Source of the DNA: Candidatus Daviesbacteria bacterium
Lineage (GTDB): Bacteria; Patescibacteriota; Microgenomatia; Daviesbacterales; UBA10151
Reading direction: 5' to 3'
NCBI GenBank assembly: GCA_016195715.1
Contig: JACPZA010000031.1
Coordinates: 60,336-124,335, forward strand
Length of the DNA: 64,000 bases
Shown here: in pieces, positions 3,287 through 51,268 of the stretch
How the letters are laid out: each line of letters begins with the position of its first letter
How positions within the stretch are numbered: position 1 is the first letter of the stretch
Notes under the pieces: generated by a model
Database searches by the model: none
Seen by the model: only the letters and a program-made list of their open reading frames with translations
Told to the model about the DNA's origin: nothing
Made by a program: the position numbers and the translations under genes

Positions 3287-4057
3287 ATGATTAAAAAAAT
3301 TATCGGACTTTTGGCTTTAATTGTTTTTTTAGTTACTCCATCAAGCGCACTTGCAGTTGGAGCAACTTTGTCACTTAATCCTTCCAGTTCAACTGTCAAT
3401 AAAGGTTGCAGTTTTTCTGTTGGGATTGACTTAGATACTGGAGGTAATAATACCGATGGGACTGATGTAATTTTAAAATTTGACCCAACTATTTTAACAG
3501 CTGGAGCAATTACTCAAGGTTCAGTTTATCCTGATTATCCTGGCAAATCAACAGATAACTCAGCCGGGACAGTCACTATTTCTGGACTAGCGTCAGTAAC
3601 CACCCCATTTAATGGTAGTGGCAGATTTGCTGATGTCAGTTTTACAGTTAACCCCAACGCTTCTCAATCAGTTGCTCAGATAAATTTTGATTTTGATCCC
3701 TCTAATAAAACAAATTCCCGGGATTCAAATGTGGTTCAATCAGTTAACGTGGTGGATATTTTAAATTCAGTTACTAATGGTAGTTATACAATTGCTAGTG
3801 GTGCTTGTTCAACTACAGCTACCTCTACACCTACCCCTACTCCAGTTCCTGGTGGTGGCGGAGTAATTGGTGCTTCTACCCCAACCCCTACTCCATTTGG
3901 TTTTATAAATGGAGTTCCAAAAGGTGGATTAATTGCTAGTGGCTCAGGTAATAACAACACTTTGCCTCCAGCTGGAGTTTCTGGACCAACCTTAGCGCTG
4001 TCTATTGTTGGTGTGTTTTTAGTAATTGGTGGAATACTGGGTTTAGCTTTACTTTAA
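3287..4057 (+). CDS. Cohesin-like domain protein with PT/Gly linker and C-terminal LPPAG + TM anchor
   Basis: A signal peptide precedes a cohesin-like core (VILKFDPTILTAG..GSVYPDYPG..GRFADVSFTVNPNAS). Then come a TPTPTPVPGGGG linker and a C-terminal 'LPPAG' followed by a ~25-aa hydrophobic segment ending the protein. The start is adjacent to the upstream stop (TAGATG). Confidence 0.45.
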   Translation: MIKKIIGLLALIVFLVTPSSALAVGATLSLNPSSSTVNKGCSFSVGIDLDTGGNNTDGTDVILKFDPTILTAGAITQGSVYPDYPGKSTDNSAGTVTISGLASVTTPFNGSGRFADVSFTVNPNASQSVAQINFDFDPSNKTNSRDSNVVQSVNVVDILNSVTNGSYTIASGACSTTATSTPTPTPVPGGGGVIGASTPTPTPFGFINGVPKGGLIASGSGNNNTLPPAGVSGPTLALSIVGVFLVIGGILGLALL

Positions 4058-4088: not shown

Positions 4089-5012
4089 ATGAATTTATCT
4101 ACTCTGATAGCTGATTTTTTGGAATATTTAGAGTTGGAAAGAAATGTTTCCCAAAAAACAATTAAAAATTATTCTCATTATTTAAAAAGATTTTTAGATT
4201 TTGCTGGAGATATTAAAGTCTCAAATATTGATTTAAATTTAATTAGAAAATATCGGCTATTTTTAGCCAGGTTTATAGATGAACAAACCAAAAAGCCCTT
4301 AAAACGGGTTACTCAAAATTTCTTTTTAATTGCATTAAGAGCTTTCTTGAGGTATTTATCACGAATTGATGTTAAATCCCTTTCTGCTGAAAAAGTGGAG
4401 CTTGGTGAACAAGACCCCTCCCCGCTTCGTATTTTGAATGAAGATGATTTAGCCAGATTACTTCAAGCACCTGGACAAAGTTCTAAAGAAGGGATTAGAG
4501 ATAAAACTATTTTGGAGCTGCTTTTTTCAACTGGGCTTAGAGTTTCAGAACTGGCATCGCTAAATAGAGATCAAATTAATTTACAAAGACGTGAGTTTGG
4601 AGTAGTAGGAAAAGGTGGTAAAGAACGGGTAGTTTTTTTATCAGATTCTGCCGTGGAGTGGTTAGAAAGATTTTTAATGATGAGAAAAGATAGTTTTAAA
4701 CCTTTATTTATTCGTTATCAAGGTCGAGTTGAAACTTTAGATCAGGGAGAAAAAATGAGACTCACTCCTCGCTCAATTGAACGAATTGTAGAAAAATATG
4801 TTAAATTAGTTGGTCTTGCTATTAAAGCTACACCGCATACTCTAAGGCATTCATTTGCAACCGATTTATTAATAAATGGAGCGGATATTAGATCAGTTCA
4901 AGAGATGTTAGGTCATTCCAATATTTCTACCACTCAAATTTATACTCATGTAACAAACCGCCAACTCAAAGAAGTCCATAAAGCTTTTCATAGCAAAAAC
5001 CGCTCAGAGTAA
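4089..5012 (+). CDS. Tyrosine recombinase, XerC/XerD family
   Basis: The C-terminal catalytic motifs HTLRHSFATDLL...GHS..STTQIYTHV (R-H-R-Y tyrosine) are present, with a phage-integrase N-terminal SAM-like domain. Confidence 0.85.
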   Translation: MNLSTLIADFLEYLELERNVSQKTIKNYSHYLKRFLDFAGDIKVSNIDLNLIRKYRLFLARFIDEQTKKPLKRVTQNFFLIALRAFLRYLSRIDVKSLSAEKVELGEQDPSPLRILNEDDLARLLQAPGQSSKEGIRDKTILELLFSTGLRVSELASLNRDQINLQRREFGVVGKGGKERVVFLSDSAVEWLERFLMMRKDSFKPLFIRYQGRVETLDQGEKMRLTPRSIERIVEKYVKLVGLAIKATPHTLRHSFATDLLINGADIRSVQEMLGHSNISTTQIYTHVTNRQLKEVHKAFHSKNRSE

Positions 5013-5014
5013 GA

Positions 5015-5356
5015 TTAAAATTCTTTAAGAAGCATTGACAGTGCGGTAGATATCACAGATAAAACTATTGCTCCTAAAATTGCTGCCCACCAACCATCAA
5101 TAGTTAAGCCTGGAACTAAAGCTGAAGCCAGTTTTAAAACAATTGCATTCACCACAAAGGCAAATAGACCCAAAGTTAAAAAAGTTAAAGGTGCTGTTAA
5201 AATTAATAATACTGGTTTAATAAAAGTATTAATTACCCCTAAAACTATGGCAGCCAAAATAGCTGCTTGAAAATTTACAACATGAAAGCCTGGAACAAGG
5301 TAGGCTGTAATAATTAAAGCTAGTGCATTAACAAGTAATGAAATAATTAAGAACAT
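5015..5356 (-). CDS. Phage holin family (Phage_holin_4_2/YvlD-like) small membrane protein
   Basis: It is 113 aa, almost entirely 3-4 TM helices, with the characteristic ...GW..AILGAIVLSV.. pattern of the PF04020 family. Confidence 0.55.
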   Translation of the reverse strand: MFLIISLLVNALALIITAYLVPGFHVVNFQAAILAAIVLGVINTFIKPVLLILTAPLTFLTLGLFAFVVNAIVLKLASALVPGLTIDGWWAAILGAIVLSVISTALSMLLKEF

Positions 5357-5381: not shown

Positions 5382-6317
5382 TTACTTGTCAACTAAAGAT
5401 TTTAAAAGTTGAACATTTTCTAAATCAGGACCATTACCTGCAAATCCAGGGACTTCTAGAATAAAGGGTATATCTTTTAACTTGGGGTGATTAATTAAAT
5501 TAGAAAAGCCTTCTTTGCCAATAAAACCTTCACCAATATTTTCATGACGATCACGATTTGATCTATATTCTACTTTTGAATCATTAGCATGAATAACAGC
5601 TAAATTTTCTAAACCAATTTCTTGCTCAAACTCTTCCAAAACATCTTTTAATCCTAAAACTGATTTAACATCATAACCTGATGCAAAAACATGTTGCGTA
5701 TCTAAACAAATTTTTAATCTGGGGTTATCAACTTGTTTTAAAATCTCACCTAGTTCTCTAAAATTCCCTCCAAGATTTCCGCCAGCACCAGCAGAAGTTT
5801 CTAAAATTAGCTGTGGTTGTTTGAATCGTTTGGGGTCCTGCCGGTCCGCAGCTCCATCCGATGTCCTCACTGCGCTGCGGGCACTCGATGGGGCGCCCCG
5901 CTCCCCGTCACCCCTCACTTCCTTTAGGATCAAACCTAAACTTTTTATTACCTGTTCCTTAATTGCCTCAAAGCCTACTCCTTTATGAGAACCAAGATGA
6001 AAAATTACACCTTGCATTTCTAAGTCCTTGGCCAAATTTAGCGCATAAATAAGCCAATCAATTGATTTTTTTAAATGTTCTTTGTTTTGTGTTCCTAAAT
6101 TTATTAGATAAGTCCCATGGATAAAATTAGGGGAAATCCCCGACTCTTTCTGAGCTTTTAAAAAAGCTGAAACTTCATCTTCTGGATGTCTAGTTTTTAA
6201 CCATTGTTGTGGAGGTGAGATAAAAATTTGAAAACAGTCTGCATTAATTTGCTTAGCTCTTTGAAAAGCTAATTCTAAGGAAACTGAGGCTGAAACATGA
6301 GCTCCAACTTTTGGCAT
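5382..6317 (-). CDS. nfo: Deoxyribonuclease IV (endonuclease IV, AP endonuclease family 2) carrying a ~35-aa GC-rich in-frame insertion
   Basis: Nfo motifs are present: MPKVGAHVS, HANDSK, and metal-binding His/Asp/Glu in the TIM-barrel pattern. Length is 311 aa against a typical ~280. The insert RGDGERGAPSSARSAVRTSDGAADRQDPKRF is encoded by a >60% GC stretch. Confidence 0.85.
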   Translation of the reverse strand: MPKVGAHVSASVSLELAFQRAKQINADCFQIFISPPQQWLKTRHPEDEVSAFLKAQKESGISPNFIHGTYLINLGTQNKEHLKKSIDWLIYALNLAKDLEMQGVIFHLGSHKGVGFEAIKEQVIKSLGLILKEVRGDGERGAPSSARSAVRTSDGAADRQDPKRFKQPQLILETSAGAGGNLGGNFRELGEILKQVDNPRLKICLDTQHVFASGYDVKSVLGLKDVLEEFEQEIGLENLAVIHANDSKVEYRSNRDRHENIGEGFIGKEGFSNLINHPKLKDIPFILEVPGFAGNGPDLENVQLLKSLVDK

Positions 6318-6374: not shown

Positions 6375-9017
6375 GTGAGTATTGTGAAAATAATGAAGAA
6401 ATTATCTCAGTCGGGGTTTGCTGGAATTTTAGGGCTTTTTAGCTTACTGATTGTGATTATGGGTATTTTAGCTGGGGTTTACTTAGTTAAAAATTATTCA
6501 ACTAATCCAAAGACCCAAGCGACAGGTGAAACTATTAAATTTGTTGATGACCAAGGAAATACTATTAACTCAACCACCTCAAATATAGTTAAAGTTTCGC
6601 TAACTGCTCCAGTTTGGTCAGCTACGTCTAGCAGTTTTTTGAAATTAATTCCTAATTTGTCTTTAATCAAAGATGCCCAAGCTGCAACTTTATATACAGT
6701 TTCAGGAAAACTCTATGATCAAAAAACTAATCAAGGAATTGGAGCAGGATTAACAATTGAAACTTGTGCTGATCCAAGTTTTAGAAGTAACCCCAAAGTA
6801 AGTTCTGATGGGACTTTTAGTTTCCAAGTTAGGGATAAAGAAACTTATTGTGTCAGGGCTCCACAAGTTTCAGGTTACAGTCTTAGTGGAACTTGTTGTT
6901 ATGAGTGGCAAATTGCCAATATTAATTGCCAGACAAGCTCAGATCCAGTTTGTGGAGGTTCATCAGATGAATCATCAGGTGCTAAAGAGCAAGATAGGTC
7001 AACTGACTCTGGTTTTAATTTTGCTTATCAAGCAAGTGGCAATAGCGGAGGGGGCGGAAGTGGTGATTCTGGCAAAGTAAAAGTTTCTGGAAAGGCTTAC
7101 GACAAAGCTACCAATAAACCAGTTGGAGTTGGACTAACTGTGGCAACTTGTGGTGGTGCAAAAAGGGATCCAGTTATTCAATCTGATGGCAGCTTTCAAT
7201 TTAAAGTTGATCAAGGCGGACTATTTTGTGTCAGAGCACCTGATGTTTCAAGATACACTAACAACTGCTGTTATGAGTGGCAAATTGCTGGGGTAGATTG
7301 TGCAGCTCATCCTAAAAGTGCTGATTGTCAGCAAGGTGATGCTAAGACCATGGACCAAAGTACAGATAGCAACTACAATATAATATACACCTCAAAAACC
7401 AAACCTACCCCAACACCTAATCCCCAAACAAAATCAGTAGTTTTAGCTGAAGATCCAAACTTTACTATTAATTCTAAAACTCTAGATTTTACAACCAGTC
7501 CAATAAGTTATACTTTTTCTGATTCAACTCCAGGTTTAAAAGTTTTATATGCTAAATTTATTGCAATTGATGGTAGAGTTCAAAACGCTTCACCCTTCCC
7601 TGCTCAAATTCAATTGATCAATGCGTCTAGCAAACCTAATATTATAGTTGTTATGACAGATGATCAAACTCTACAATCAATGGCTTATCTTCCAAAAGTT
7701 AACTCATTAATTCGTGATCAGGGTAGCGAATTTACCAATTTCTTTGTTTCTAGCTCACTTTGTTGTCCATCCCGCTCGGAATTTTTAACCGGTCAATATG
7801 CCCACAATAATGGAGTTATCTCAAATCAACCTCCAAACGGTGGTTATGACAAGCTAGATAATACCAATACTTTAGCAGTCTGGTTAAAAAATTCAGGTTA
7901 TTATACCGGACTAGTTGGCAAATATTTAAATGGTTTTGGTAATGCTAAAAATGCTGATCCCAAAGCTCTCCCACCTGGCTGGAGCGATTTTCATGGCGGT
8001 TGGGGTCAATCATTTTATAGTAGTTATTTTAACTATACTTTGGATGAAAATGGTAAATTAGTTGATTATAAAGATGATGGTGTAACTGATAATAGCTACA
8101 TGACTAATGTCTTAACCCAAAGGGCGGTTGATTTTATAAATGGCCGTAAAAATGATTCTAATCCTTTCTTTCTTTGGTTAACTTATTTTACCCCTCACGA
8201 AGATGCCTCAGTTGATGGGCCAACTCCAGCTAGAAAATACCAGGGTAAGTTTGCTAGTGAGCCTCTTCCAAAGCCTGCTAGCTTTAACGAAGCAGATGTT
8301 TCTGACAAACCCCAGATGGTCCAAGATTTTGCGCTGCTTAATTCATCAGACATCTCTCATATCACCAATCACTACCGTCATACCCTGGAAGCTTTGCAAT
8401 CTGTAGATGATGGAGTTGAAACACTAATTAATACCCTCCAAACTGCTGGTAAACTTGAGAATACAATTATTATGTTCACCTCAGACAATGGTTACTTTAA
8501 TGGAGAGCACAGAAAGCCCAAGGGTAAATCAATGCTTTATGAAAACTCGATTCATTTACCACTTTTAGTTTCTGGTCCAGGAATTCCTCATCAAAGCATT
8601 GATCGAGCAGTTGTAAACATTGATTTTGCACCAACCATTGTAGATTTTAGCGGCGCAACTGCTAAAAGAACTATGGATGGAATGTCTTTTAGAGGTTTAA
8701 TTGCCAGCCCGGCTATTTCATGGAGGGATAGTTTCTTATTAGATGGTCCAGAGAATGAATATACCGCTGTTAGAACAAAGCAATATATCTATGCCGAGCA
8801 TACCTCAGGAGGTAAGAATCCAAATGAGTTATATGATTTATTTAGTGACCCAGACGAGCTGACTAATTTAATGTATACTAACTCCAAAAGCCTAAACCAA
8901 GGATTGGTAACTATGCTCCATCAACTCAAAACTTGCAATGGTTCAAACTGTAATGTTCCCTTAGCCTCTGGATTGTTGCCTTGGACTAGTTCAACCAGTT
9001 CTGCAGGATTGAAATAA
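6375..9017 (+). CDS. Secreted/anchored fusion: N-terminal TM or pilin-like leader, 2x Cys-rich 'CCYEWQ' modules (paralogous to ORF 595) and a C-terminal sulfatase catalytic domain
   Basis: Sulfatase signature: IIVVMTDDQ...SSSLCCPSRSEFLTGQY (C-x-P-x-R formylglycine motif), with ...FTSDNGY..GEHR..KGK downstream. The upstream modules align with 595..2565 (VSGKAYDKATNKPVGVGLTVATCG..CCYEWQIAGVDC). Confidence 0.75.
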   Translation: MSIVKIMKKLSQSGFAGILGLFSLLIVIMGILAGVYLVKNYSTNPKTQATGETIKFVDDQGNTINSTTSNIVKVSLTAPVWSATSSSFLKLIPNLSLIKDAQAATLYTVSGKLYDQKTNQGIGAGLTIETCADPSFRSNPKVSSDGTFSFQVRDKETYCVRAPQVSGYSLSGTCCYEWQIANINCQTSSDPVCGGSSDESSGAKEQDRSTDSGFNFAYQASGNSGGGGSGDSGKVKVSGKAYDKATNKPVGVGLTVATCGGAKRDPVIQSDGSFQFKVDQGGLFCVRAPDVSRYTNNCCYEWQIAGVDCAAHPKSADCQQGDAKTMDQSTDSNYNIIYTSKTKPTPTPNPQTKSVVLAEDPNFTINSKTLDFTTSPISYTFSDSTPGLKVLYAKFIAIDGRVQNASPFPAQIQLINASSKPNIIVVMTDDQTLQSMAYLPKVNSLIRDQGSEFTNFFVSSSLCCPSRSEFLTGQYAHNNGVISNQPPNGGYDKLDNTNTLAVWLKNSGYYTGLVGKYLNGFGNAKNADPKALPPGWSDFHGGWGQSFYSSYFNYTLDENGKLVDYKDDGVTDNSYMTNVLTQRAVDFINGRKNDSNPFFLWLTYFTPHEDASVDGPTPARKYQGKFASEPLPKPASFNEADVSDKPQMVQDFALLNSSDISHITNHYRHTLEALQSVDDGVETLINTLQTAGKLENTIIMFTSDNGYFNGEHRKPKGKSMLYENSIHLPLLVSGPGIPHQSIDRAVVNIDFAPTIVDFSGATAKRTMDGMSFRGLIASPAISWRDSFLLDGPENEYTAVRTKQYIYAEHTSGGKNPNELYDLFSDPDELTNLMYTNSKSLNQGLVTMLHQLKTCNGSNCNVPLASGLLPWTSSTSSAGLK

Positions 9018-9094: not shown

Positions 9095-11650
9095 ATGTTT
9101 CTGTCCAAATTTAAAAAGCAGCTTGCTGTTTTTTTAAAAAATCAACAAGGTGCAATTCCGCTTTTGGTGCTAGTGGCAGTTTTAGGGCTAGTGGCTTTTT
9201 TGGCTATCTCTTCAACTTTTTCTTTTAGAAATAGTATTTTTTCTAGACTTTTTCCTAAACCCCCCTCTCATGCTGCAAGCAAAAATGGTCCAGTTCAAAG
9301 CATCTATACTCCTGATAATTATGGAGTTAATTATTTTGGTTTTTCAAGTGATGATACCATCCGTGGACAACAACTTGATTTAATCAAGCAAACTGGTGCC
9401 AAATGGGTACGAGGAGTGACCTGTCAATGGCAAAGTATTCAATGGGATCAAAATATGTACAGCAGCAACTTATGGAATTTTGCTGCATGCGATAAAATAG
9501 TCAATGAAATAGTTTCTCGAGGTATGACCCCGCTAATGGCACTCTGGTATTCTTCAAATTCCTGTACCACTGCTCCTTCTAATCCAATTACCCAAATTTC
9601 AGGTTACCCACCCTGTGATAATCAGAAGTTTCATGATTATGTTTATCGAGTGGTCAGCCGTTATGGATCCAATGCCAATGGCATTGTCCCTGATAAAAAT
9701 GACACAGCAGCATATGGACAAAACAAGGTGCATTTTTATGAGCTTGGTAATGAGCCAAACAGACAAAATGCATTTCCGATTGCTGATGGACTTGGTGGGA
9801 CCTATGATGCTACTAATGAGCCAGCCCACCTAGCAGCTAACACTTATGTCTCTCTTTTAAATACTGCCCATGATGCCATCAAAGGATCATCAGGGGCAGA
9901 TGCTGGTTCAAATCTGGTGGTGGCATCAATAAATGCTGGTAATGTTATTGTCCCTAGAACAGATTTCTTAACTGATGTTATAAAGGGCGCTGGGAATAAT
10001 ATTGATATCATGAACCTGCATGTCTATGGTGATCAAAAAAGTTTTGACACCTCGCTATCTCAAGCAAAGCAGGCATATGTAGATGCAGGTATAGCAGAAA
10101 AACCTTATTGGGTGACAGAGAATGGTTATGCTAGTGACTCAACCTTTAAAAGTTTCCCCTTCCCCAGCACTGAACCAGATTTTTATTGCCCAACTGGAAC
10201 TTGTTATCAGCAGCAAGCCAATTATATCAATGAAATGATTCCTTATATGTTCAATTCTGGCGTTTCAAAAGTATTTTGGTTTGCTAGTGTTGATGATCCC
10301 CAAAGCACCAGTCCTGGGTATTGTACTGATAGTTTGATGTATTACCCTGGTTATCAATGTAATCAGAATGGTCCTGCACCATCCTCTGTACCTTTAACCC
10401 AAAAAGATCCTGGGTTTACTGCCTACAAAAATTTAGTTGCCAAGCCAGACCCATTACCTCCAATTACCAGCATGGTTTCTCCAGTAGATGGATCTAGTAT
10501 TTCTGGTGCACTTACTATTTCAGCCACAGCTACAGATAATGTTGGGGTAACTAAAGTGGAGTTTTATGTTGACGGAGGAGATAATAAGGGAGGAACTGGA
10601 CCCTATAAAACTATGACTGCCCCAACCTCAGGCAGCACCTATTCTAATGACCAAAATACATTTACTTTAGTTCAGGGTTCAACCCATACTCTTTATGTTA
10701 AAGCTTATGATGCTGCCGGAAATTTTGCCCAATCTAATACTATCTCCTTTAAAGTAACTGACACTACTGCTCCAGCTGTATCTATTACCTATCCTGCCAG
10801 TTCTACCCCTCCTCTTTCTGGAGGAACAACCATTACAGCTACAGCTACAGATAATATTGCTATAGCTCATGTAGATTTTTATATTGATGGGGCACTTTTA
10901 AGCTCTGATAAAAATCCAGATAGTGGGACAAATAATTATTCAGCATTCTGGGGTTCTGGTACTTTACCTCAAGGTTCAATCCACACCATTTATGCAATAG
11001 CTTATGACACTGCTGCTACCCCAAACCAAACTACCTCCCAAACAATTACAGTCACTACTAATGATTCCTCTAAACCAGTAGTTAGCAATATAGTTCCAAC
11101 CAATTTAGCAACCATCAATTCTGGAATTATAGCTGTTTCTGCTACTGCCACAGATAATGTTGGGGTAACTAAAGTTGAGTTCTGGCAAGACTCAGATTCT
11201 GCACCTTTTGCTACAGATACATCTGCCCCCTACTCTGCTAGTTGGGATGCGACTAATTTAAGTCAAGGAGTTCAACACACTCTAACAGTTAAAGCTTACG
11301 ATGCCCAGGGAAACATTGGTAGTGGAACTTCCAAAGTAACTTTTATTGATACTACAAAGCCAGTAATTTCTAACTTACTACCAGTTAATGGTACTGTTGT
11401 TACTCTGAATGTGACTGTTAATCTTCAAGCTACAGCTACAGATAATGTCAAAATAAAAAATGTGACCTTCTCGGTGGATGGAACTCAGAAATGCTCTGTC
11501 GGATATTCCTCCGCTGTCAATGATGTTTACACCTGCTCTAATTGGAAACCAACTCTAAAATCCCATACTTATAATATTTCAGTGACAGCTAATGACACAG
11601 CCTCCTCAACCAATAGCACAACTAGTACGTATACTTTAAAAACATTATAA
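9095..11650 (+). CDS. Glycoside hydrolase, clan GH-A (GH5-like) catalytic domain + 4 bacterial Ig-like repeats + conserved C-terminal domain
   Basis: The catalytic acid/base motif YELGNEPN and the nucleophile motif WVTENGY are present. Repeats of the type ATATDNVGVTKVEFYVDG (Big-like) follow. There is an N-terminal TM or pilin-like leader. Confidence 0.65.
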   Translation: MFLSKFKKQLAVFLKNQQGAIPLLVLVAVLGLVAFLAISSTFSFRNSIFSRLFPKPPSHAASKNGPVQSIYTPDNYGVNYFGFSSDDTIRGQQLDLIKQTGAKWVRGVTCQWQSIQWDQNMYSSNLWNFAACDKIVNEIVSRGMTPLMALWYSSNSCTTAPSNPITQISGYPPCDNQKFHDYVYRVVSRYGSNANGIVPDKNDTAAYGQNKVHFYELGNEPNRQNAFPIADGLGGTYDATNEPAHLAANTYVSLLNTAHDAIKGSSGADAGSNLVVASINAGNVIVPRTDFLTDVIKGAGNNIDIMNLHVYGDQKSFDTSLSQAKQAYVDAGIAEKPYWVTENGYASDSTFKSFPFPSTEPDFYCPTGTCYQQQANYINEMIPYMFNSGVSKVFWFASVDDPQSTSPGYCTDSLMYYPGYQCNQNGPAPSSVPLTQKDPGFTAYKNLVAKPDPLPPITSMVSPVDGSSISGALTISATATDNVGVTKVEFYVDGGDNKGGTGPYKTMTAPTSGSTYSNDQNTFTLVQGSTHTLYVKAYDAAGNFAQSNTISFKVTDTTAPAVSITYPASSTPPLSGGTTITATATDNIAIAHVDFYIDGALLSSDKNPDSGTNNYSAFWGSGTLPQGSIHTIYAIAYDTAATPNQTTSQTITVTTNDSSKPVVSNIVPTNLATINSGIIAVSATATDNVGVTKVEFWQDSDSAPFATDTSAPYSASWDATNLSQGVQHTLTVKAYDAQGNIGSGTSKVTFIDTTKPVISNLLPVNGTVVTLNVTVNLQATATDNVKIKNVTFSVDGTQKCSVGYSSAVNDVYTCSNWKPTLKSHTYNISVTANDTASSTNSTTSTYTLKTL

Positions 11651-11664
11651 TGAAATAGACTGCC

Positions 11665-13836
11665 ATGCTTAAATTATTAGACCAAAAAGGTGCTATTCCA
11701 CTACTAATACTGATTGCTGGGGTTGGGTTAATTGTTTTTTTAATTATTTCTGCAACTTTTTCCTTCAGGAATCAAACCTTCCAAACTCTTTTTCCCAAAC
11801 CCTCCTCTAAAGCTGCAACACTCTATGGGCCAGATAACTATGGTGTTAATACTGGTATAGCTTTATCTGAAGCAGCTATGCCAGATGTCATGGCAAAAGA
11901 GCATGCTGCAAATATCGGTTGGATTAGATTACTTTGCAATTGGGATAGTATCCAAGCTTCTGATCCAGGACCTGTGCCAAACCCTCCCACTGGTTTAAGT
12001 AATTTTAAATTTAACTCATGCGATGCAAATATGACCAATGTTAAAAATAATTCTTTGCAACCTTTACTTGGATTTTATTATGCTTCAGCATGGTGCAATA
12101 CTGGTGGAGTTGGTTTATCTCAACAAGAAAAGTCTGCTCCTTGTGATTACAATAAATTCTATGACTTTGTTTATCATTTAGTGGCCAGGTATGGATATAC
12201 TGAACACTCTGATTTAAGCCTAACCAAAGCTAATGGTTATGCCCAAGGGATAGTTAAATATTGGGAGATTGGTAATGAACCAGATGCAGACTCTCAACTT
12301 GCTCCAGGTGGAACTGCAATTGAAATTTCTAATAATTATGCTCATATTTTACAAACTGCCCATGATGCTATTAAAGCAGCAGATCCTAATGCTAAGATTT
12401 TAATTGGGGGTTTGGTCATTCAGAGTAAGGCAGACCCAACTTTTTTCCAGGATCTGTTAAACAATACTACCTATCCCAATACCAAAAATAACTTTGATAT
12501 TGGAAACTTTCATACTTATGGAATTAAAACAGAAGCCCAATCTAAGATGAATGAAGTTAGAAATGATTTAGCAGCAGTTGGAGTAACTAAAGATACTTGG
12601 GTAACAGAGAATGGTTATCCTTCTAATCTTGCTCAACAAAATCTCCTATCTGATGCCAGGCTAGAAGCTAATTATGGAACAGATGTGCAAGGTCAAGTTA
12701 ATTATATGAATGATTTAAGGCCTTATATTTTAAAAGACTTGGGAGCTAAAAAAGTCTTTTGGTATACCAGTTTAGATGACCCTTCAGACAGTACTTCTTT
12801 TTGCAGCCATGGTTTATTTTATTACAATGGTTACCAGTGCAACCAAGCAGTTTTGCCATCTCCTGCTCCTGTAGAAACTGCTAAACCTGCTTTTGATACT
12901 TATAAAAATATTATTGCTGGAACTGATACCACTCTTCCAACTGTTTCAATGAGTCCTCTTCCTCAATATGTAACTGGCAATGTAACTTTAACAGCCAATG
13001 CTTCAGATAATATTTGGGTTTATAAAGTGGAGATTTATGTTGATGGCATAATGCAAACTGATAATAGTGGCAATCCAGATTTTTATGCACCATTTACAGA
13101 TTCTTGGCCTACAGGAACTTTAGTTCAAGGAAGCAGTCATTCTATTTATGCCAAAGCTTATGATGAAAATTTTAATATGACCCAATCTGCTCCTATCACC
13201 ACAGTTATCCAAGACACTAGTAACCCCACTATTTCTATTAACTCGCCAGTTGGAGGAAGTACTGTGACTGGAATAGTTCCTATAAGTACAACATCTTCTG
13301 ATAATGTTGGAGTAACTAAGGTAGAATTTTATTTGGATAGTTCCACCACCCCTTTTGCAACTAATTCTAACCCTTCCCCTGCTCCTTCACCTACCACTTT
13401 TAATACCACTGCTAATTGGAATTCAACCACCTTACCTCCAGACCAGCAAGGTATTTACCACACAATAGCTGTTAAAGCTTATGATGCTTATGGAAATATA
13501 AGTTTACAGCCCTCAGTCAGGGTGAAATTAGCTGATACCACTAAACCTACTTTGAGCAATTTGCTGCCTATAAATGGGACAATTATTACTGTTGGTATTT
13601 ATGCAACTTTGCAGGCTACAGCTACAGATAATGTAAGAATACTTAATGTGACCTTTTCAATTGATGGAACGCAACAGTGCTCAAAGGGTTACAGTACTGC
13701 AATCAATGATGTTTACAGTTGTACAAACTGGAAGCCAACTTTACACAACCATACCTATACTATTTCAGTTACAGCTAATGACACAGCTTCACCAGCCAAC
13801 AGCACTACTCAAACTTTTACCCTAAAAACTTTATAA
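11665..13836 (+). CDS. Glycoside hydrolase, clan GH-A (GH5-like), tandem paralog of 9095..11650
   Basis: WEIGNEPD and WVTENGY motifs are present, with Big-like repeats. The C-terminal ~100 aa are nearly identical to the upstream paralog (..LQATATDNV(K/R)I.NVTFS(V/I)DGTQ.CS.GYS.A(V/I)NDVY.C.NWKPTL..HTY.ISVTANDTAS..NSTT.T(Y/F)TLKTL). Confidence 0.65.
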   Translation: MLKLLDQKGAIPLLILIAGVGLIVFLIISATFSFRNQTFQTLFPKPSSKAATLYGPDNYGVNTGIALSEAAMPDVMAKEHAANIGWIRLLCNWDSIQASDPGPVPNPPTGLSNFKFNSCDANMTNVKNNSLQPLLGFYYASAWCNTGGVGLSQQEKSAPCDYNKFYDFVYHLVARYGYTEHSDLSLTKANGYAQGIVKYWEIGNEPDADSQLAPGGTAIEISNNYAHILQTAHDAIKAADPNAKILIGGLVIQSKADPTFFQDLLNNTTYPNTKNNFDIGNFHTYGIKTEAQSKMNEVRNDLAAVGVTKDTWVTENGYPSNLAQQNLLSDARLEANYGTDVQGQVNYMNDLRPYILKDLGAKKVFWYTSLDDPSDSTSFCSHGLFYYNGYQCNQAVLPSPAPVETAKPAFDTYKNIIAGTDTTLPTVSMSPLPQYVTGNVTLTANASDNIWVYKVEIYVDGIMQTDNSGNPDFYAPFTDSWPTGTLVQGSSHSIYAKAYDENFNMTQSAPITTVIQDTSNPTISINSPVGGSTVTGIVPISTTSSDNVGVTKVEFYLDSSTTPFATNSNPSPAPSPTTFNTTANWNSTTLPPDQQGIYHTIAVKAYDAYGNISLQPSVRVKLADTTKPTLSNLLPINGTIITVGIYATLQATATDNVRILNVTFSIDGTQQCSKGYSTAINDVYSCTNWKPTLHNHTYTISVTANDTASPANSTTQTFTLKTL

Positions 13837-13838
13837 AT

Positions 13839-14051
13839 CTATAAAGGTTTTCCGGCTAGACCATATTGGAGGAAATCAGGAGCAAAGCCAATGGCTTGAT
13901 AGGGCCAGGTTAAAATTACTACATAAAATCCAGGACTAAAGTAAGCAAATGGACTCCAATGATAAAAAAAGGCAAAAGCAAAGGCAAAAATAATTCCTAT
14001 CACAAAATAAATTGAAGCAAAAATTGGAATTTTTTTTTCAATTTTATTCAT
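13839..14051 (-). CDS. Small hypothetical membrane protein
   Basis: A 70-aa ORF with two hydrophobic helices overlaps the gyrA start by 8 nt. There is no recognisable family. Confidence 0.2.
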
Positions 14052-16641
14052 TATTAGTTTTTTCTTTAGAAGATACTACTGTTGCAGCAGCTACATTTTC
14101 TCCGCTTCTAACTCTCATTAATATTACACCTTGGGTTTGTCTTTGCAGCGTTGGAACATCTTTTAGATTGAGTTTAATCAGTTGACCTTTATTGGATGTT
14201 AATATCAAAGTATCAGCTTCTGAGTCAACTACTTGAGCGGTAACAATTTTGCCAGTTTTTTCGGTAACTTGAGCAGCTTTAATTCCATTGCCTCCCCTGC
14301 CTTGTCTTTTCCAAGCTGAGATCAAAGTTTTTTTACCTAACCCCTTTTCCATAATTACTAAAACCTCAGCTTTAGGATCATTAACTAAATTCATAGAAAC
14401 AACCTCATCATCTTTTCCCAGCATAATCCCTCTTACGCCAGACGTATCTCGATGGGTTGGTCTGACTTGAGATTCTCCAAATCTAATAGACTGACCATGA
14501 TAAGAGACAATAATGACATCATCTTGCCCAGTTGTGGGGACAACCCAACGCAGTTCATCACCTTTATCTAATTTAATTGAGATTAAACCATTTTTTCTAA
14601 TATTGGCATACTCACTAATTTGGGTTTTTTTAACATTCCCTTGTCTGGTACACATAAATAAAAATTTAGTCACATCTTTGGCGCGGGATGTTAAAATAGC
14701 AGTAATTTTTTCACCTTGATCAACATTAATTAAATTAACAATTGCTTGACCTTTAGCCACTCGAGAAGTTTCTGGAATCTCCCAAACTTTAATTTGAAAA
14801 ACTCTACCTCGATCTGTAAAAAATAATAAATTATCTAGCGTTTTGGTATAGAAAATATGAGAAACTGCATCTTCTTCTTTGGTAGTTATTCCTGAGACTC
14901 CTTTACCGCCTCTATTTTGAGTTCTAAAACTCATTGGAGATTGACGCTTGACATATCCGCCTTCTGTAACCGTGACGATCGTTACCTCATCTGCAACTAA
15001 ATCTTCTTCAGAAAATTCCCCTACTTTTTGTTTGTAAACTCGAGTTTTTCTCTCATCGCCGTAGCGTTCTTTAATTTTTAATAACTCATCTTTGATAACT
15101 TTTAAGATTTTTTCTGGGTGAGAAAGTAAGTCTTCTAAATAAGTAATTAATTCTCTAATCATTTTTAACTCATCTTCAATTTTTTGCCTCTCCAACGCTG
15201 CTAAACGGCGAAGCTGCATATCTAAAATTGCTACAGCTTGAAGTTCAGTTAATTTAAATTTGCTTATTAATGCAACTTTAGCTTCATCTGCGTCTTTGCT
15301 TTTTCTAATGGTATTAATAACTTCATCAATGTTATCAACTGCAATTTTTAAACCTTCTAAAATATGTTCTCTGGCTTTGGCTTCTGCTAGTTCAAATTCT
15401 GATCTTCTTATAACAATAACTTGGCGATGATGAATAAACTCTTCCAAAACTCGCTTTAAAGTCATTAAGTGGGGTACACCATCCGAGAGCGCTACCATGT
15501 TGACATTAAAAACAGATTGCAGGGCTGTGTGTTTATATAAATTATTTAAAACTGATTGGGGCTTGCCATCTCTTTTTAGTTCAATTACCACTCTCATTCC
15601 TTTGCGATCTGATTCATCTCTTAAATCTGAGATTCCATCAATCTTTTTCTCTTTGACTAAATCTGCAATTCTAGCAATTAAAGTGGCTTTATTAACCTGA
15701 TAAGGCAGTTCAGTAACTATAATGTCAAATCTGCCACCTTTGGTTTCTTCAATCTCAGCTTTGGCGCGCATCACAATCCTCCCTTTACCTGTAGCATAGG
15801 CTGCTAAAATTTCACTATGATCGTAAATTGATGCACCTGTTGGAAAATCTGGTCCTTTAATAAATTTCATTAAATCCTCAACAGTCGCTTCAGAAGAAAA
15901 AGTATCAGAATGCCTCTGTTCAGGGTCCTGTCCCTTCGGTTTCTCAAATCTATCCTTCGACTCAATGTCTTCGATCAAAGTCTGCGGTACGTTTTGAGAG
16001 CTCTCCTTCGGGCCACCCTTCACAATAGTTGGATTCTCAATCAGGTGAATCAAAGCATCAGTGACTTCACCTAAATTGTGTGGAGGGATTTGAGTAGCCA
16101 TTCCAACAGCAATTCCAGATGCGCCGTTAAGTAATAAATTAGGGATGACTGCAGGGAGTAAAGTTGGTTCCTCCGTTGTCCCAGAGTAATTATCAATAAA
16201 ATTAACAGTATTTTTATTAATGTCGCGAAGCAGCTCATCTGCAATCGCTGAAAGTCTGGCTTCGGTATACCTCATAGCAGCAGGTGAATCTCCATCAACT
16301 GATCCAAAGTTTCCCTGACCATCAACTAAAGGATATCTCATGGAAAAATCTTGGGCCATTCTGACCATGGCTTCATAAACTGGTGCATCACCGTGGGGGT
16401 GATAATTTTTTAAAACTTCTCCAACTACCGCTGCAGATTTTTGATAACGGCTAGTGTGATGCAGATTTTGTTGCTGCATGGCATAGATAATTCGCCGCTG
16501 AACTGGTTTTAGGCCATCTCTAACATCAGGCAGAGCGCGGGATACAATCACTGACATGGCATAATCTAAGTAGGATTTTTGCATCTCATCTGTTAAAGAT
16601 ACTGGTTCAATCTTACCGATGTTAGTTGGTTTGTTATCCAT
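14044..16641 (-). CDS. gyrA: DNA gyrase subunit A, with ~45-aa GC-rich insertion before the GPDFPT loop
   Basis: Motifs AMRYTEARL (catalytic Tyr), GPDFPT and the C-terminal beta-pinwheel repeats are present. The inserted segment [44 protein letters not shown] is encoded by GC-rich DNA at 15895-16030. Confidence 0.95.
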
Positions 16642-25795: not shown

Positions 25796-27499
25796 ATGGC
25801 GCTAGCTGCTCAAACGATTGAAGAAATTTTGCTTAAACAAGGTTATTTACGTCCTGATCAAGTCTCAGCTATTAAGCTTGAAAGTATTAATTCTGGTCAA
25901 CCTTCGGAAAAAATTATCAGAGAACACAACTTTGCCACGGCAGAACAAGTGGCTCAAGCCCTCTCAATATTACTTGGGGTGCCATTTATCAAGTTAGAAA
26001 ATAAAGCCATTTCCACAGAAGTTTTAAATTTAATTCCTGAAGCTGTGGCAAAGCATTACCAACTAATCCCCTTTGATCGTCAGCTGGATAGGTTATCAGT
26101 AGCTATGGTTGATCCACTGGATTTACAAGTCATTCAATTTATTGAGAAAAAATCCGGACTTAAAGTTATTCCTTTTTTAGGCTATACCGAAGATATTTTA
26201 AAAGCTATCTCCAGCCAGTATTCTCAAAACCTAACCTCTGAAGTCACCTCAGCTCTAAAAGAAGTTTCTGAACTGCAGCGAGCAAATGCCCCTCAAGAGT
26301 CGATTGATCAAGCAGAAGTAATCCGCGAAGCACCAGTTTCCAATATTGTTACCCAACTTTTGGAGTATGCAGTTAAGACCCGAGCTTCAGATATTCATAT
26401 TGAACCTCAAGAAAATCAAACTAGAGTTAGATATAGAATTGATGGAATTTTGCACGAAAAAGTTATTTTACCTAAAAAAGTTCACGAAGCAGTTGTTTCT
26501 CGAGTTAAAATTTTATCAAATTTAAAAATTGATGAACGAAGGTTACCGCAAGATGGTAGGTTTACTTTTGAGTTTGCTGGAGCAGAGATTGATTTGCGTA
26601 TCTCCACTCTGCCGACAGTTTTTGGAGAAAAAGTAGTATTAAGATTGCTGCCAAAATCTGCTCAAGCACCCTCACTGACTGATTTAGGACTGCGTGGCAG
26701 TTCTCTAAAAACCCTAGAAACTCAACTCCTTCGTACCCATGGAATTATTTTAATCTGTGGCCCAACAGGTTCAGGTAAAACCACCACTTTATATTCAGTT
26801 TTATCGAAACTTTCAACAACAAAAGTAAATATTTTAACAATTGAAGATCCGGTTGAGTATGAAATTCCTGGAGCAAATCAAGTTCAAGTTAATCCCCAAA
26901 TTGGCTTAACCTTTGCCTCAGCTCTGCGGTCTTTTTTGCGCCAAGACCCAAATATTATCCTGGTTGGAGAGATTCGAGATACTGAAACTGCAGAGTTGGC
27001 TATTCAAGCTGCACTAACTGGTCACCAAGTTTTTTCTACACTACATACTAATACTGCATCAGGCGCTCTGCCTAGAATGCTAGACATGGGAACTGAGCCA
27101 TTTTTACTAGCTTCAGCTGTGAACGGAATAGCTGGGCAGAGAATTTTGCGAAAAATTTGTGAGCATTGTCGGGTTTCATTTACTCCTCCACCTGAGGTGA
27201 TTGAAAATATTAAAGTTACCTTAGGAAATCTAATCTCAACTAACAAACCAATCCAGCTTTACAAAGGTCAGGGTTGTAATTTTTGTAATCACTCTGGTTA
27301 TTTAGGACGGACAGGAATTTATGAAGTTTTATCAGTTTCAGAAAAAATTATGAAATTAATTTTAGAGCGAGCTTCATCCGTTGCTATTGAAGAACAAGCC
27401 GTATCTGAAGGGATGATTACTTTAAAACAAGATGGCTATTTAAAAGTTTTAGAAGGGGTGACCACTTTTGAGGAAGTTTTGCGTGTAGCCCAAGATTAA
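25796..27499 (+). CDS. pilB: Type IV pilus assembly ATPase PilB (GspE family)
   Basis: There is an N-terminal GSPII_E N-domain. Walker A LICGPTGSGKTTTLYS, the Asp/His boxes and a tetracysteine motif (CEHC..CNFC) are present. Confidence 0.9.
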   Translation: MALAAQTIEEILLKQGYLRPDQVSAIKLESINSGQPSEKIIREHNFATAEQVAQALSILLGVPFIKLENKAISTEVLNLIPEAVAKHYQLIPFDRQLDRLSVAMVDPLDLQVIQFIEKKSGLKVIPFLGYTEDILKAISSQYSQNLTSEVTSALKEVSELQRANAPQESIDQAEVIREAPVSNIVTQLLEYAVKTRASDIHIEPQENQTRVRYRIDGILHEKVILPKKVHEAVVSRVKILSNLKIDERRLPQDGRFTFEFAGAEIDLRISTLPTVFGEKVVLRLLPKSAQAPSLTDLGLRGSSLKTLETQLLRTHGIILICGPTGSGKTTTLYSVLSKLSTTKVNILTIEDPVEYEIPGANQVQVNPQIGLTFASALRSFLRQDPNIILVGEIRDTETAELAIQAALTGHQVFSTLHTNTASGALPRMLDMGTEPFLLASAVNGIAGQRILRKICEHCRVSFTPPPEVIENIKVTLGNLISTNKPIQLYKGQGCNFCNHSGYLGRTGIYEVLSVSEKIMKLILERASSVAIEEQAVSEGMITLKQDGYLKVLEGVTTFEEVLRVAQD

Positions 27500-27502
27500 T
27501 TT

Positions 27503-28576
27503 ATGAATATTCAACAACTACTTGACTTAACAATTGGCTCAAATGCTTCTGATTTACACCTTTTGGTGGGCTCTCCACCAACTTTAAGAATTGATGGAAA
27601 TTTAGCACCAATTAACGGTATGAATGTAATTTCTCAATCTGATTTTGAGAGTTTGGTTTTTGCGCTAATTTCTCCTTACCAAAAAGATCTTTTTTTGAGA
27701 GAATGGGAACTTGATTTAGGTTTTGATTTTGCTGGTAAAGCCAGGTTTAGGGTCAATATTTATAAACAAAGAGGAGCACTAGCCGCATCGCTTCGACTTA
27801 TACCCAAAACTATTCGATCTATTGAAGAGACCGGTTTACCGCCAATAGTTTCTAAATTAACCGAGCTTGAACAAGGTTTAGTTTTGGTGACTGGCCCAAC
27901 AGGTCATGGCAAATCCACAACTTTAGCTGCCTTAATTAATCAAATTAACAAAACCCGCTCAGTCCATATCTTAACTATTGAAGATCCAATTGAGTTTGTT
28001 TATCCAGAAGGTAAAGCTCTGATCTCTCAACGAGAACTAAACTCTGATACTAAAGCTTGGAATAACGCCCTAAAGTCTGCTTTAAGAGAAGATCCAGATG
28101 TAGTGTTAATTGGTGAGATGAGAGACTATGAAACAATTGCTTCAGCCATGACTATTGCTGAAACTGGACATTTAGTATTGGCAACGCTGCACACTAACTC
28201 TGCCTCTCAAAGTATTGATCGTATTATTGACGTTTTTCCTGAAAATCAACAACCTCAAATTCGCTCTCAGCTGGCTGAGGTGATTGAAGCAATTATCTCC
28301 CAGCGTTTAATCCCCACGATTAATCCTGGACGAGTTTTAGCAGCTGAGTTACTTTTTGCAGTCCCAGCTCTGCGAGCTATTATTCGGGAGGGAAAAAATC
28401 ACCTAATTGATAATTTAATTCAAACCTCAGCTGAAGCTGGAATGATTGGTTTGGAAACGTCTCTCGCGACATTAGTTCGGGAGGGATTAATTACTTCGGA
28501 GGTAGCTTTAAATTATGCTCTTAAACCGCAATTACTTAACAAATTTTTAGGTACTGATACTACTTCTTCAGCTTAA
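27503..28576 (+). CDS. pilT: Twitching motility ATPase PilT
   Basis: Walker A VLVTGPTGHGKSTTLAALI is present. Length is 357 aa, with the AIRNLIRE-like motif AIIREGK. Confidence 0.9.
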   Translation: MNIQQLLDLTIGSNASDLHLLVGSPPTLRIDGNLAPINGMNVISQSDFESLVFALISPYQKDLFLREWELDLGFDFAGKARFRVNIYKQRGALAASLRLIPKTIRSIEETGLPPIVSKLTELEQGLVLVTGPTGHGKSTTLAALINQINKTRSVHILTIEDPIEFVYPEGKALISQRELNSDTKAWNNALKSALREDPDVVLIGEMRDYETIASAMTIAETGHLVLATLHTNSASQSIDRIIDVFPENQQPQIRSQLAEVIEAIISQRLIPTINPGRVLAAELLFAVPALRAIIREGKNHLIDNLIQTSAEAGMIGLETSLATLVREGLITSEVALNYALKPQLLNKFLGTDTTSSA

Positions 28577-28579
28577 AAT

Positions 28580-50665: not shown

Positions 50666-51268
50666 TTACGGCGATTCTGAAAACATTTGTGAAGATCTTC
50701 TTGGGCGGGTGTGTGGAGGCATTACCAAAAAGTATTCTTCCCAGCTAACCATATTAGCGGCCATCCATCTAATTCCTCCCCAAAGCAGTCTAAAGCTTTC
50801 TATTGAAGGGTTACGAGCATAATCTTCTGCAGATATACTAATACCAAAATCCTTGTAAAAGAACCCTAACGTTAAACTTCGGGAATCTTGGCCAAGTGGT
50901 AAAGAACATCTTATTAATACTGAATCAGCGAGTCCTGTAGCTATCCCTCCTGCACTTAACTCAACTCGTGGATTAAAAGCTGACAGTTCTTCTTCCGGTT
51001 CCGCAACTAGTGTAGCAACACCAAGTTGTGAAGGTTTACGAATAACATATGCTCCAATTACTCTGGAATATTTCTTAAGTAACTCTCTACCAACAATTCG
51101 AAATGATTCTGCTAAAGTTTGAGGATCAATGCCTACTAAATTCATCAAATCTTCTGGATCATGAAATAAATCTTCCGGTGTATCAGTAATTCTTCGAAGA
51201 TTTCCTCTTGCTTGTTCTAATAGTAGTCTTTCTTTTCGGGAAAGTTTCCTTTCTTTTCTTTCAACCAT
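50666..51268 (-). CDS. Hypothetical protein (GC-elevated)
   Basis: A 200-aa ORF with ~48% GC locally and no recognisable motifs. Confidence 0.3.
   Translation of the reverse strand: MVERKERKLSRKERLLLEQARGNLRRITDTPEDLFHDPEDLMNLVGIDPQTLAESFRIVGRELLKKYSRVIGAYVIRKPSQLGVATLVAEPEEELSAFNPRVELSAGGIATGLADSVLIRCSLPLGQDSRSLTLGFFYKDFGISISAEDYARNPSIESFRLLWGGIRWMAANMVSWEEYFLVMPPHTRPRRSSQMFSESP

Follow-up and report, generated by a model that had tools for sequence, protein, structure and literature searches.

Among the described systems of palindromic repeats within coding sequence, the Rickettsia palindromic elements (RPEs; Ogata et al. 2000/2002, as summarised in PMC10969869 and PMC3733652) are the closest known kind to the element reported here, a GC-rich hairpin repeat that lies in frame within nfo, the gene for endonuclease IV (deoxyribonuclease IV), of a Candidatus Daviesbacteria bacterium belonging to the Candidate Phyla Radiation (CPR; Patescibacteria). 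The copy is located in a 64,000-nt stretch of contig JACPZA010000031.1 (positions 60,336 to 124,335), hereafter called the window, and positions given without a locus label are counted from its first letter; loci in other assemblies carry L numbers and homologous proteins P numbers. As far as the summaries cited describe the RPEs, they and the present family are alike in being short, many-copy palindromic repeats that sit in frame in unrelated housekeeping genes of small genomes, in encoding a family peptide at positions compatible with the fold of the host protein, and in having no known transposase. Measured against the same summaries, the family differs from the RPEs in its sequence, in its hosts (CPR/Patescibacteria and not Alphaproteobacteria), in its length (~93-99 nt against ~100-150 bp), in being strongly GC-rich within AT-rich genomes, in forming a single hairpin with conserved asymmetric internal loops, and in using both orientations, each with its own fixed frame. 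Hence, as a kind, the element is RPE-like, that is, a dispersed hairpin repeat that is read in frame and contributes a family-specific peptide to a surface loop, the last feature having been checked for Nfo; host phylum and base composition set it apart from RPE-1 to RPE-10, and membership among these is not claimed.

A second comparison is with the repetitive extragenic palindromes (REPs). Intragenic GTAG- and CGTC-tagged REPs and REP dimers are, like the element, GC-rich stem-loops that can be situated within genes, to which they add 20-30 residues (PMC3733652), and, as here, many of the genes that harbour them serve in replication and repair (Di Nocera et al. 2013, PMC3733652). The element, however, is 2-4 times as long (93-99 nt across the family) as the REP unit, a stem-loop of 20-40 bp, and no unpaired GTAG or CGTC head is present in it, its ends reading (GT/GC)GAG-GGGT.... 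Bacterial MITEs (miniature transposable elements with inverted repeats), such as QMITE1/2 of Coxiella (PMC5896051) and ERIC, Correia and BOX (PMC10969869), are likewise small and non-autonomous with complementary ends, and are occasionally translated within host open reading frames (ORFs). MITEs are mostly intergenic and usually possess terminal inverted repeats and target-site duplications, whereas nearly all copies of the present element are intragenic and the whole of it is one hairpin; at 93-99 nt it has no capacity to code for a transposase, and its terminal arms are complementary, but a target-site duplication is not among its visible features.

In yeast mitochondria, GC clusters and bypass elements are also GC-rich, hairpin-forming mobile sequences in the coding genes of very AT-rich genomes; these are organellar and shorter, and in some species they are skipped by the ribosome, whereas the frame constraint described below indicates read-through. 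Integron attC sites were considered and rejected. They share with the element an imperfect hairpin with conserved unpaired bases, but the attC hairpin is closed by boxes of the consensus 5' RYYYAAC ... GTTRRRY 3', the polarity of the present element is opposite (5' GT..GGGGT ... ACCCC..AC 3'), and genes rather than cassette arrays harbour its copies. The coding palindromes of Nematomorpha mitochondria (PMC6649704) resemble the element in that long inverted repeats capable of forming a hairpin are compatible with a functional frame, but their arms encode native conserved protein and they do not form a dispersed mobile family, whereas here the insert is added and dispensable. A full-text literature search returned no description of such elements in CPR/Patescibacteria, which is not in itself proof of novelty.

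A GC-rich repeat within nfo

The nfo segment belongs to a repeat family whose copies form a covarying hairpin, reside in frame in many unrelated genes in both orientations, and can be nearly identical within one genome. It is likely, in our judgement, to be one copy of a small, GC-rich, non-autonomous, single-hairpin repeat that is dispersed in CPR bacteria of the Daviesbacteria/Microgenomates type and tolerated in frame at permissive positions. The original prediction, made from the letters of the window, had described a segment of ~105 nt that interrupts an otherwise AT-rich nfo without breaking the frame. The insert is real, its peptide had been given exactly and the frame is kept, but the element measures 93 nt (5827-5919; Table 1) and its G+C content is 0.71. 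The window has a mean of 0.354 (sd 0.062 for stretches of 93 nt), which places the element at z = 5.7, and nfo outside the element has a G+C content of 0.327. Windows of 60-100 nt around 5810-5940 climb to 0.60-0.73, and elsewhere in the window such a G+C content is reached only by a Gly-rich coding run near 63.8 kb. Local G+C peaks at 63823-63995, 1381-1452 and 3828-3894 are low-complexity coding runs (Gly-rich; Pro/Thr-rich linkers), and not copies of the element.

A protein identical to the window Nfo is present in NCBI as deoxyribonuclease IV of Candidatus Daviesbacteria. All nine family-invariant His/Asp/Glu positions are retained (H67, H107, E173, D206, H209, H243, D256, H258 and E288), which plausibly match the metal ligands of the E. 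coli enzyme, and because all nine are kept, the gene looks functional. In the window (4089-5356) and in L001 (5425-6706), nfo is flanked in conserved synteny by genes for a small membrane protein of the Phage_holin_4_2 family and an XerC/D-like tyrosine recombinase; the latter, probably the Xer enzyme of the chromosome, showed no link to the element.

Dispersal and taxonomic range

A scan of species-representative genomes with the core pattern GTGCCCGCAGC-N(0-12)-GAGGACATCGG gave 13 stretches. Seven of them are true copies, lying in loci of 34-44% G+C and sharing the whole core of 80-84 nt including the termini, and the remaining six are chance matches in genomes of 62-74% G+C, with no similarity beyond the pattern. 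A stricter pattern yielded 20 more copies in metagenome contigs, all of them in DNA of 36-48% G+C. Over both scans the elements are 61-78% G+C inside DNA of 34-48% G+C, and the family amounts to ~26 independent copies, spread over more than 20 different genes. A covariance model, R1, was built from 16 copies and scores all family members at 35-99 bits. Run on the whole window with filters off, R1 gives exactly two significant matches, one in nfo and one in gyrA; a third candidate at 50924-50973 on the minus strand (15.8 bits, E = 0.17), inside the ORF 50666..51268, covers the terminal arms only and looks like a chance match, or could be a deleted remnant. Six insert peptides, combined into a profile, gave no match in a word-indexed search, and an exhaustive HMMER search at the peptide level gave one match, the protein P0121, DNA patterns being far more productive. 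No match to the family was found in IMG/VR viral contigs, PLSDB plasmids or GenBank phages.

Copies from one source can be almost the same in sequence. The 83-nt cores of the polA and pgk copies of one metagenome-assembled genome (MAG; L006/L013) are identical, the copies in fpg (L009) and in a PMT_2 gene (L015) of one 609-kb Microgenomates contig are one base apart, and nearly identical 89-nt cores occupy four different genes of one metagenome (L019, L022, L025 and L033). Such near-identical copies within a genome point to recent spread.

Four copies (L006, L012, L013 and L017) come from records titled "uncultured Gammaproteobacteria", and a spread across phyla was considered and dropped. The phosphoglycerate kinase (PGK) encoded in L013 matches that of Candidatus Daviesbacteria GW2011_GWB1_41_5 with 100% identity, and the proteins next closest to it all come from Daviesbacteria or Microgenomates. 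For L017, a 1.61-Mb chromosome, a look-up by exact sequence returned no independent taxonomy. Because of this identity the gammaproteobacterial titles were treated as wrong, and these MAGs are probably mislabelled CPR genomes. The family is claimed for the CPR only, namely for Daviesbacteria/Microgenomates and one Saccharimonadales-labelled MAG (L014).

Two loci deserve separate mention. In L032 (Ga0208245_1011626, 1194-1288), a polA 5' flank, as in L006, L034 and L038, is joined across the element to a pgk 3' flank, as in L013 and L035, giving a fused ORF of 679 aa; the join arose either through misassembly at the repeat or through genuine recombination of two copies. In the copy of the ATP-dependent DNA ligase gene (L023:3112-3200, L026:7087-7175, L030:272-391), the 5' half is interrupted or replaced by ~30 nt (…CTTGACAGGCGTGGATATCCC…), so that the copy is a nested or rearranged one, still in frame in L023 and L026.

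Hairpin structure and covariation

RNAalifold, applied to 8 and then to 16 copies, gives a single long hairpin. Its outermost part is the terminal helix (GGGGT/ACCCC or CGGGT/ACCCG), beyond which 2-6 additional pairs are formed, in many cases on the far side of a tandem G.A mismatch. Inside this helix lies a conserved asymmetric internal loop with GR on the 5' side and RCAGG on the 3' side, followed further inward by a second helix of variable sequence, a third helix and a conserved apical domain. In the consensus hairpin of the 16 copies, 95.3% of cells form standard pairs against 83.7% in shuffles, compensatory changes occur in 11 of the 25 pairs against 7.5, and 51 cells are changed on both sides against 17.2. 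None of 500 shuffles reached the observed pairing values, and when the partners are slid by 1-3 columns, pairing is only 35-46%. Well-preserved copies fold at z = -3.8 to -5.4 relative to dinucleotide shuffles, and hairpin energies of single copies range from -38 to -55 kcal/mol, the minimum free energy (MFE) fold of the nfo copy being one long hairpin at -38 kcal/mol. Since the element is a palindrome, covariation cannot tell which strand folds, nor whether it folds as RNA or as DNA. Rfam 15 gave no match over the element in the window (E <= 10) or in five loci with well-preserved copies (E <= 1).

Host genes, orientation and reading frame

Twenty-three of the 26 independent copies lie inside long ORFs that are open on both sides of the element; one (L017) occupies the 104-nt spacer between pheS and pheT, and two are in short or uncertain ORFs. 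By Pfam, the hosts that act on DNA are Nfo, GyrA, PolA, a 5'-3' exonuclease, Fpg, UvrD, RecG, topoisomerase I (TopA) and ATP-dependent DNA ligase, and the others are PGK, the CPSase large chain (CarB), GT1, GT2, PMT_2, DUF2298, three Mur-ligase family proteins, YchF and a MerR-HTH protein. DNA replication and repair proteins make up ~9-10 of the ~24 identified hosts (~40%), a raw count from small numbers that is uncorrected for gene length or gene content. L028 had been a candidate for a further nfo whose corresponding loop holds an antisense copy, but by its Pfam assignment it is a Mur ligase.

Insertions are antisense in 15 cases and sense in 9. All 15 antisense copies are read as xGP[VA]...PMSS...RALDG/AGTRR..., though 2.6 of the 3 frames are stop-free on average, and seven of the nine sense copies are read as xG[DG]..GGPPSSARS.... 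The preferred antisense frame lacks Cys and Trp; of the two alternative frames, one exceeds it in hydrophobicity and the other does not. A counter-example, seen at the protein level, is the PGK homologue P0131, in which another frame is used. The spacing of the conserved termini varies from 80 to 105 nt and is not always a multiple of three, and in-phase insertion therefore depends on the variable outer stem or on adjustments of the flanks. This dependence suggests that selection filters the insertions.

The Nfo loop as a recurrent insertion site

The insert occupies the loop between a helix ending in ...ILK and the strand LILETSAGA. In the 120 closest Nfo homologues this loop has 6-12 residues in 75 cases, 13-20 in 14 and more than 20 in 31, and in the window protein it has 37. 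The ortholog alignment that had been proposed as a check shows the segment to be extra relative to the common 6-12 residue form and maps it onto a helix-to-strand loop; indeed, Nfo sequences of the PDB match residues 1-132 and 166-311, omitting the insert. In the AlphaFold model the window Nfo is a TIM barrel with a mean predicted local distance difference test (pLDDT) score of 91.9, in which residues ~134-168, between the helix 116-133 and the strand 169-173, have a pLDDT near 50 and no secondary structure. The helix-to-strand loops of TIM barrels face away from the catalytic side. As modelled, the insert is a disordered surface loop opposite the metal/catalytic site.

Long loops of the homologues are highly divergent from one another in sequence, and wherever the DNA was read (L001-L005) they are GC-rich palindromes and not, as the refutation named with the original prediction would have required, loops of equal length with ordinary composition. 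Those of L001, L002 and L003 hold relatives of the window insert. Those of L004 (3083-3979; P0075) and L005 (1722-2660; P0041) each hold a separate repeat family, GTCATTCCTGCGAAAGCAGGAATCCAATTGGATCCCCGCGTACGCGAGGATGAC (GTCATTCC...GGATGAC) in the former and CGTCATTGCGAG...CTCGCAATGACG in the latter; repeats of these types translate to peptides such as VIPAKAGIQ...REDDKK and SLRG..TKQS..ARNDG, and they are similar to CGTC-tagged REP dimers (Di Nocera et al., PMC3733652). Further Nfo homologues with unrelated loop repeats were seen as protein only (P0055, P0029, P0015, P0098, P0009 and P0013), and an xNDx motif ends 12 of the 31 long loops.

The Nfo proteins of the window and of L001 are 59% identical overall. 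Over the insert, the two genes show an amino-acid identity of 0.50, a nucleotide identity of 0.71 and a third-position identity of 0.70, against 0.61, 0.62 and 0.42, respectively, over the flanks. Because third positions are kept better, and amino acids worse, than in the flanks, the constraint on the insert, or its recency, is at the nucleotide level. The window copy is 70% identical to the nfo copy of L001, compared to 75-77% for the carB and polA copies of other genomes. As it is no closer to the L001 nfo copy, common ancestry of the nfo insertions is not demonstrated, and repeated insertion into one permissive Nfo loop appears at least as likely as shared ancestry.

Another recurrent site is the PGK loop after VLVGGKI..EL (homologues P0122-P0241; L013:6851-7939). 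Most PGK homologues have no insert, ~15% (Daviesbacteria-type) are filled at the same loop by this or other families, and P0123, a Daviesbacteria PGK that is 74% identical, represents the empty site. P0121, a UvrD-like fragment of 276 aa, contains two tandem copies near its N-terminal end, one of each subfamily. The UvrD copy of L024 (4236-4344) lies at the equivalent position (…RQDP / …LELLD…), and L024 has a second copy, of another subfamily, within a DUF2298 membrane protein.

The second copy, in gyrA

The original prediction had also pointed to an in-frame insert of similar composition in gyrA, and had offered independent insertions of a small, frame-preserving GC-rich element as one explanation of the pair. 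This insert exists, is in frame and is homologous to that of nfo at the DNA level, but the likeness in composition does not hold, its G+C content being only 0.50, which is consistent with an older copy eroding toward the composition of the host. The explanation by independent insertions is supported: R1 was built without the gyrA copy and yet recovers it (E = 2.6e-6), and more than 20 unrelated genes carry the element. In the DNA alignment, the two inserts have in common the 5' end GTGARGGGTGRC, an internal CCGCAG and the 3' end GRCAGGACCC. The gyrA copy adds ~36 residues directly before a conserved GyrA motif, and it keeps the outer helices and the same fold architecture (z = -2.4); its peptide is closely similar to the Nfo insert of P0026, ESSQNGPQTLIPRQRDTESRTGFEIPRRQDPEL. 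The syntenic gyrA of L001 has the Pfam domains DNA_topoisoIV and DNA_gyraseA_C, and a different, shorter extra segment is found at the same loop of its product.

Table 1. Coordinates of the two copies of the element, their parts and their host genes in the window
Feature	Positions	Strand	Basis
nfo (endonuclease IV / deoxyribonuclease IV), host gene	5382..6317	-	ORF of 311 aa, intact; Pfam PF01261, E = 8.9e-40
GC-rich hairpin repeat element, nfo copy, 93 nt	5827..5919	-	R1 match, 84.9 bits, E = 6.7e-19, full model covered
31 in-frame codons added to Nfo (R136-F166), peptide RGDGERGAPSSARSAVRTSDGAADRQDPKRF	5823..5915	-	Translation and coordinates
5' terminal arm GTGAGGGGT, pairing with the 3' arm across a tandem G.A/A.A mismatch	5910..5918	-	Consensus helix 1 and MFE fold
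3' terminal arm ACCCCAAAC	5828..5836	-	Coordinates and helix 1
Apical core CGAGTGCCCGCAGCGCAGTGAGGACATCGG, near-unchanged in subfamily-A copies	5858..5887	-	Alignments of copies
gyrA, second host gene	14044..16641	-	ORF; GyrA motifs in the translation
Older, AT-eroded copy of subfamily B, in frame in gyrA	15917..16024	-	R1 match, 34.9 bits, E = 2.6e-6

Proposed mode of movement

In the mode of movement proposed here, the element would travel as DNA through a trans-acting, structure-specific enzyme, for which an HUH/Y1 transposase of the IS200/IS605-RAYT type and a tyrosine recombinase are the candidate types. We infer this from three features taken together, namely that the stems vary with pairing kept, that unpaired bases are conserved and that both orientations are used. 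What the enzyme would recognise are the conserved unpaired nucleotides (5' GGGU-GR-C... and ...G-RCAGG-ACCC 3') along with stems that are conserved in structure and variable in sequence. Copies would land, or survive only, where ~31-33 extra residues rich in Gly, Pro, Ser, Arg and Ala do no harm, and purifying selection would leave only in-frame, stop-free insertions with a hydrophilic frame in permissive loops. The frame and stop-codon constraint further suggests that the element is transcribed and translated within the host protein and not removed, its peptide presumably being tolerated as a disordered loop.

Several points weigh against this account. That the apical core is invariant among the copies is in part a product of the search patterns. 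In its folding the nfo copy itself does not stand out from shuffled sequence (z = -0.84), and four of its pairs are non-canonical relative to the family consensus; on both grounds it appears partly eroded, and the structural case is therefore built on the whole family and not on the fold energy of this copy. The translation of the insert is argued from the frame constraint and from nothing else. No transposase or recombinase could be linked to the element, the DNA covered being 8-14 kb around each copy, and no pair of termini 0.2-3 kb apart, as in a parent element, occurs in 249 kb of fetched loci. A target-site duplication is not visible at the copies, whose exact ends are uncertain by a few bases. 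A 2-bp duplication, suggested by the GC/GC and AT/AT flanks, was considered and rejected: the flanking dinucleotides are complementary and not direct repeats, reading GC...GC or AT...AT at some copies and GT...AC at both window copies and L003, from which it follows that these positions are paired and not duplicated. Outward pairing beyond the termini extends over a mean of 3.4 of 6 positions, compared to 1.8 in mismatched controls. Moreover, the interiors of the L025 and L022 copies are one base apart, and their terminal extensions differ by 5-6 compensatory pairs (GAAAGC/GCTTTC vs GCGAG/CGAGC), a difference in the terminal stem that ordinary copy-and-paste does not predict. Finally, the frame is fixed more strictly than a filter against stops alone would lead one to expect, and its explanation is incomplete.

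Alternative explanations

The last two anomalies would find an explanation if these were CPR-specific, structure-recognised mobile hairpins with coding-tuned integration, either phase-aware or directed to hairpin sites, and with a terminal stem rebuilt at each event. Such a mechanism is unlikely in our view. If true, it would explain the single frame of all 15 antisense copies, the terminal pairs of L025 and L022 and the repeated hits on the same loops and on DNA replication and repair genes, and post-hoc selection alone would not be the cause; the frame and terminal-stem anomalies gain in interest to the extent that they reflect the insertion mechanism.

It is improbable that the element has been domesticated, in the sense that its mRNA hairpin or its disordered peptide would serve the host in translation pausing, in mRNA stability or as an interaction tag on DNA-repair proteins. 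The high share of DNA replication or repair proteins (~40% of identified hosts), the fixed frame with its conserved peptide, and the many copies that keep a high G+C content against AT mutation pressure all speak for a function of this sort, but presence or absence among close relatives follows no obvious pattern, the two orientations give two unrelated peptides, the gyrA and nfo copies of the window are eroding, and unrelated repeat families fill the same loops. The enrichment in repair genes, moreover, derives from small numbers that are uncorrected for gene length.

Removal of the element before translation, either as a miniature intron or intervening sequence excised at the hairpin and religated, or through ribosome bypass, is very improbable. 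The stable hairpin (-38 to -55 kcal/mol), the conserved unpaired nucleotides that could be a processing site, and the precedent of yeast mitochondria, where GC-rich mobile hairpins in AT-rich genes are bypassed by the ribosome, make it worth considering. Removal, however, would leave length and frame unconstrained, yet 23 of 26 copies are in ORFs that stay open and in phase, and all 15 antisense copies use one frame; no Rfam intron or ribozyme matches the element; and, both orientations being used, a strand-specific RNA processing signal is not possible in all hosts.

There is very little to recommend an ordinary, lineage-specific expansion of the Nfo loop, that is, a fast-evolving linker of low complexity that took shape at the level of the protein, mobile DNA playing no part. 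It would accommodate the continuous range of loop lengths among the homologues (6 to 50 residues) and a peptide that is compositionally simple and predicted to be disordered, but not the recurrence of the same DNA, in both orientations, in over 20 unrelated genes and once in the pheS-pheT spacer, nor third positions that are better conserved than the flanks where amino acids are less so, nor covarying stems in a segment of 71% G+C within a 33% gene.

An assembly chimera or contamination by GC-rich reads, for which one could cite that the exact protein occurs in only one assembly and that, as the polA/pgk join of L032 suggests, the repeat can mislead assemblers, is scarcely credible and in practice excluded, given that both flanks belong to the same gene in frame with every catalytic residue kept, that the length is exactly 31 codons, and that at least four independent assemblies from other samples (L001, L002, L003 and P0026) have a homologous insert at this loop of Nfo. 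Equally hard to believe is a foreign patch acquired from a GC-rich donor nfo by recombination or gene conversion, which had been the other suggestion made for the two inserts and to which the very unlike local composition lends some colour: the segment has no similarity to Nfo, sits between residues that are adjacent in solved Nfo structures, has no match in the plasmid and phage collections, and has the defined ends and the hairpin of a short, structured repeat whose family is spread over unrelated genes.

Significance

CPR/Patescibacteria genomes are small and gene-dense and are usually called poor in mobile DNA, and here is a repeat family that lies almost wholly inside essential genes. It explains odd, GC-rich, disordered inserts that lengthen CPR proteins and confuse alignments, structure prediction and composition-based binning, and such repeats can cause chimeric joins in metagenome assemblies, of which L032 is a possible case. 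The family also marks naturally permissive loops in Nfo, PGK, GyrA and UvrD, and the covariance model, together with a hairpin carrying conserved unpaired bases, provides a means to seek the mobilising enzyme.

Other features of the window

Between 29880 and 36808 the window contains at least eight small genes with a common conserved 5' segment (…GGNTTTACNYTNRTTGAA…ATTGC…ATT…), similar to the N-termini of type IV pilins or pseudopilins, and this run is situated downstream of three ORFs at 25796-29788. The large ORFs at 595-2565, 6375-9017 and 9095-13836 contain diverged internal repeats that resemble repeated extracellular domains, with units of ~300 nt at 10500-13667 and of 76-97 nt common to 700-1270 and 6696-7300.

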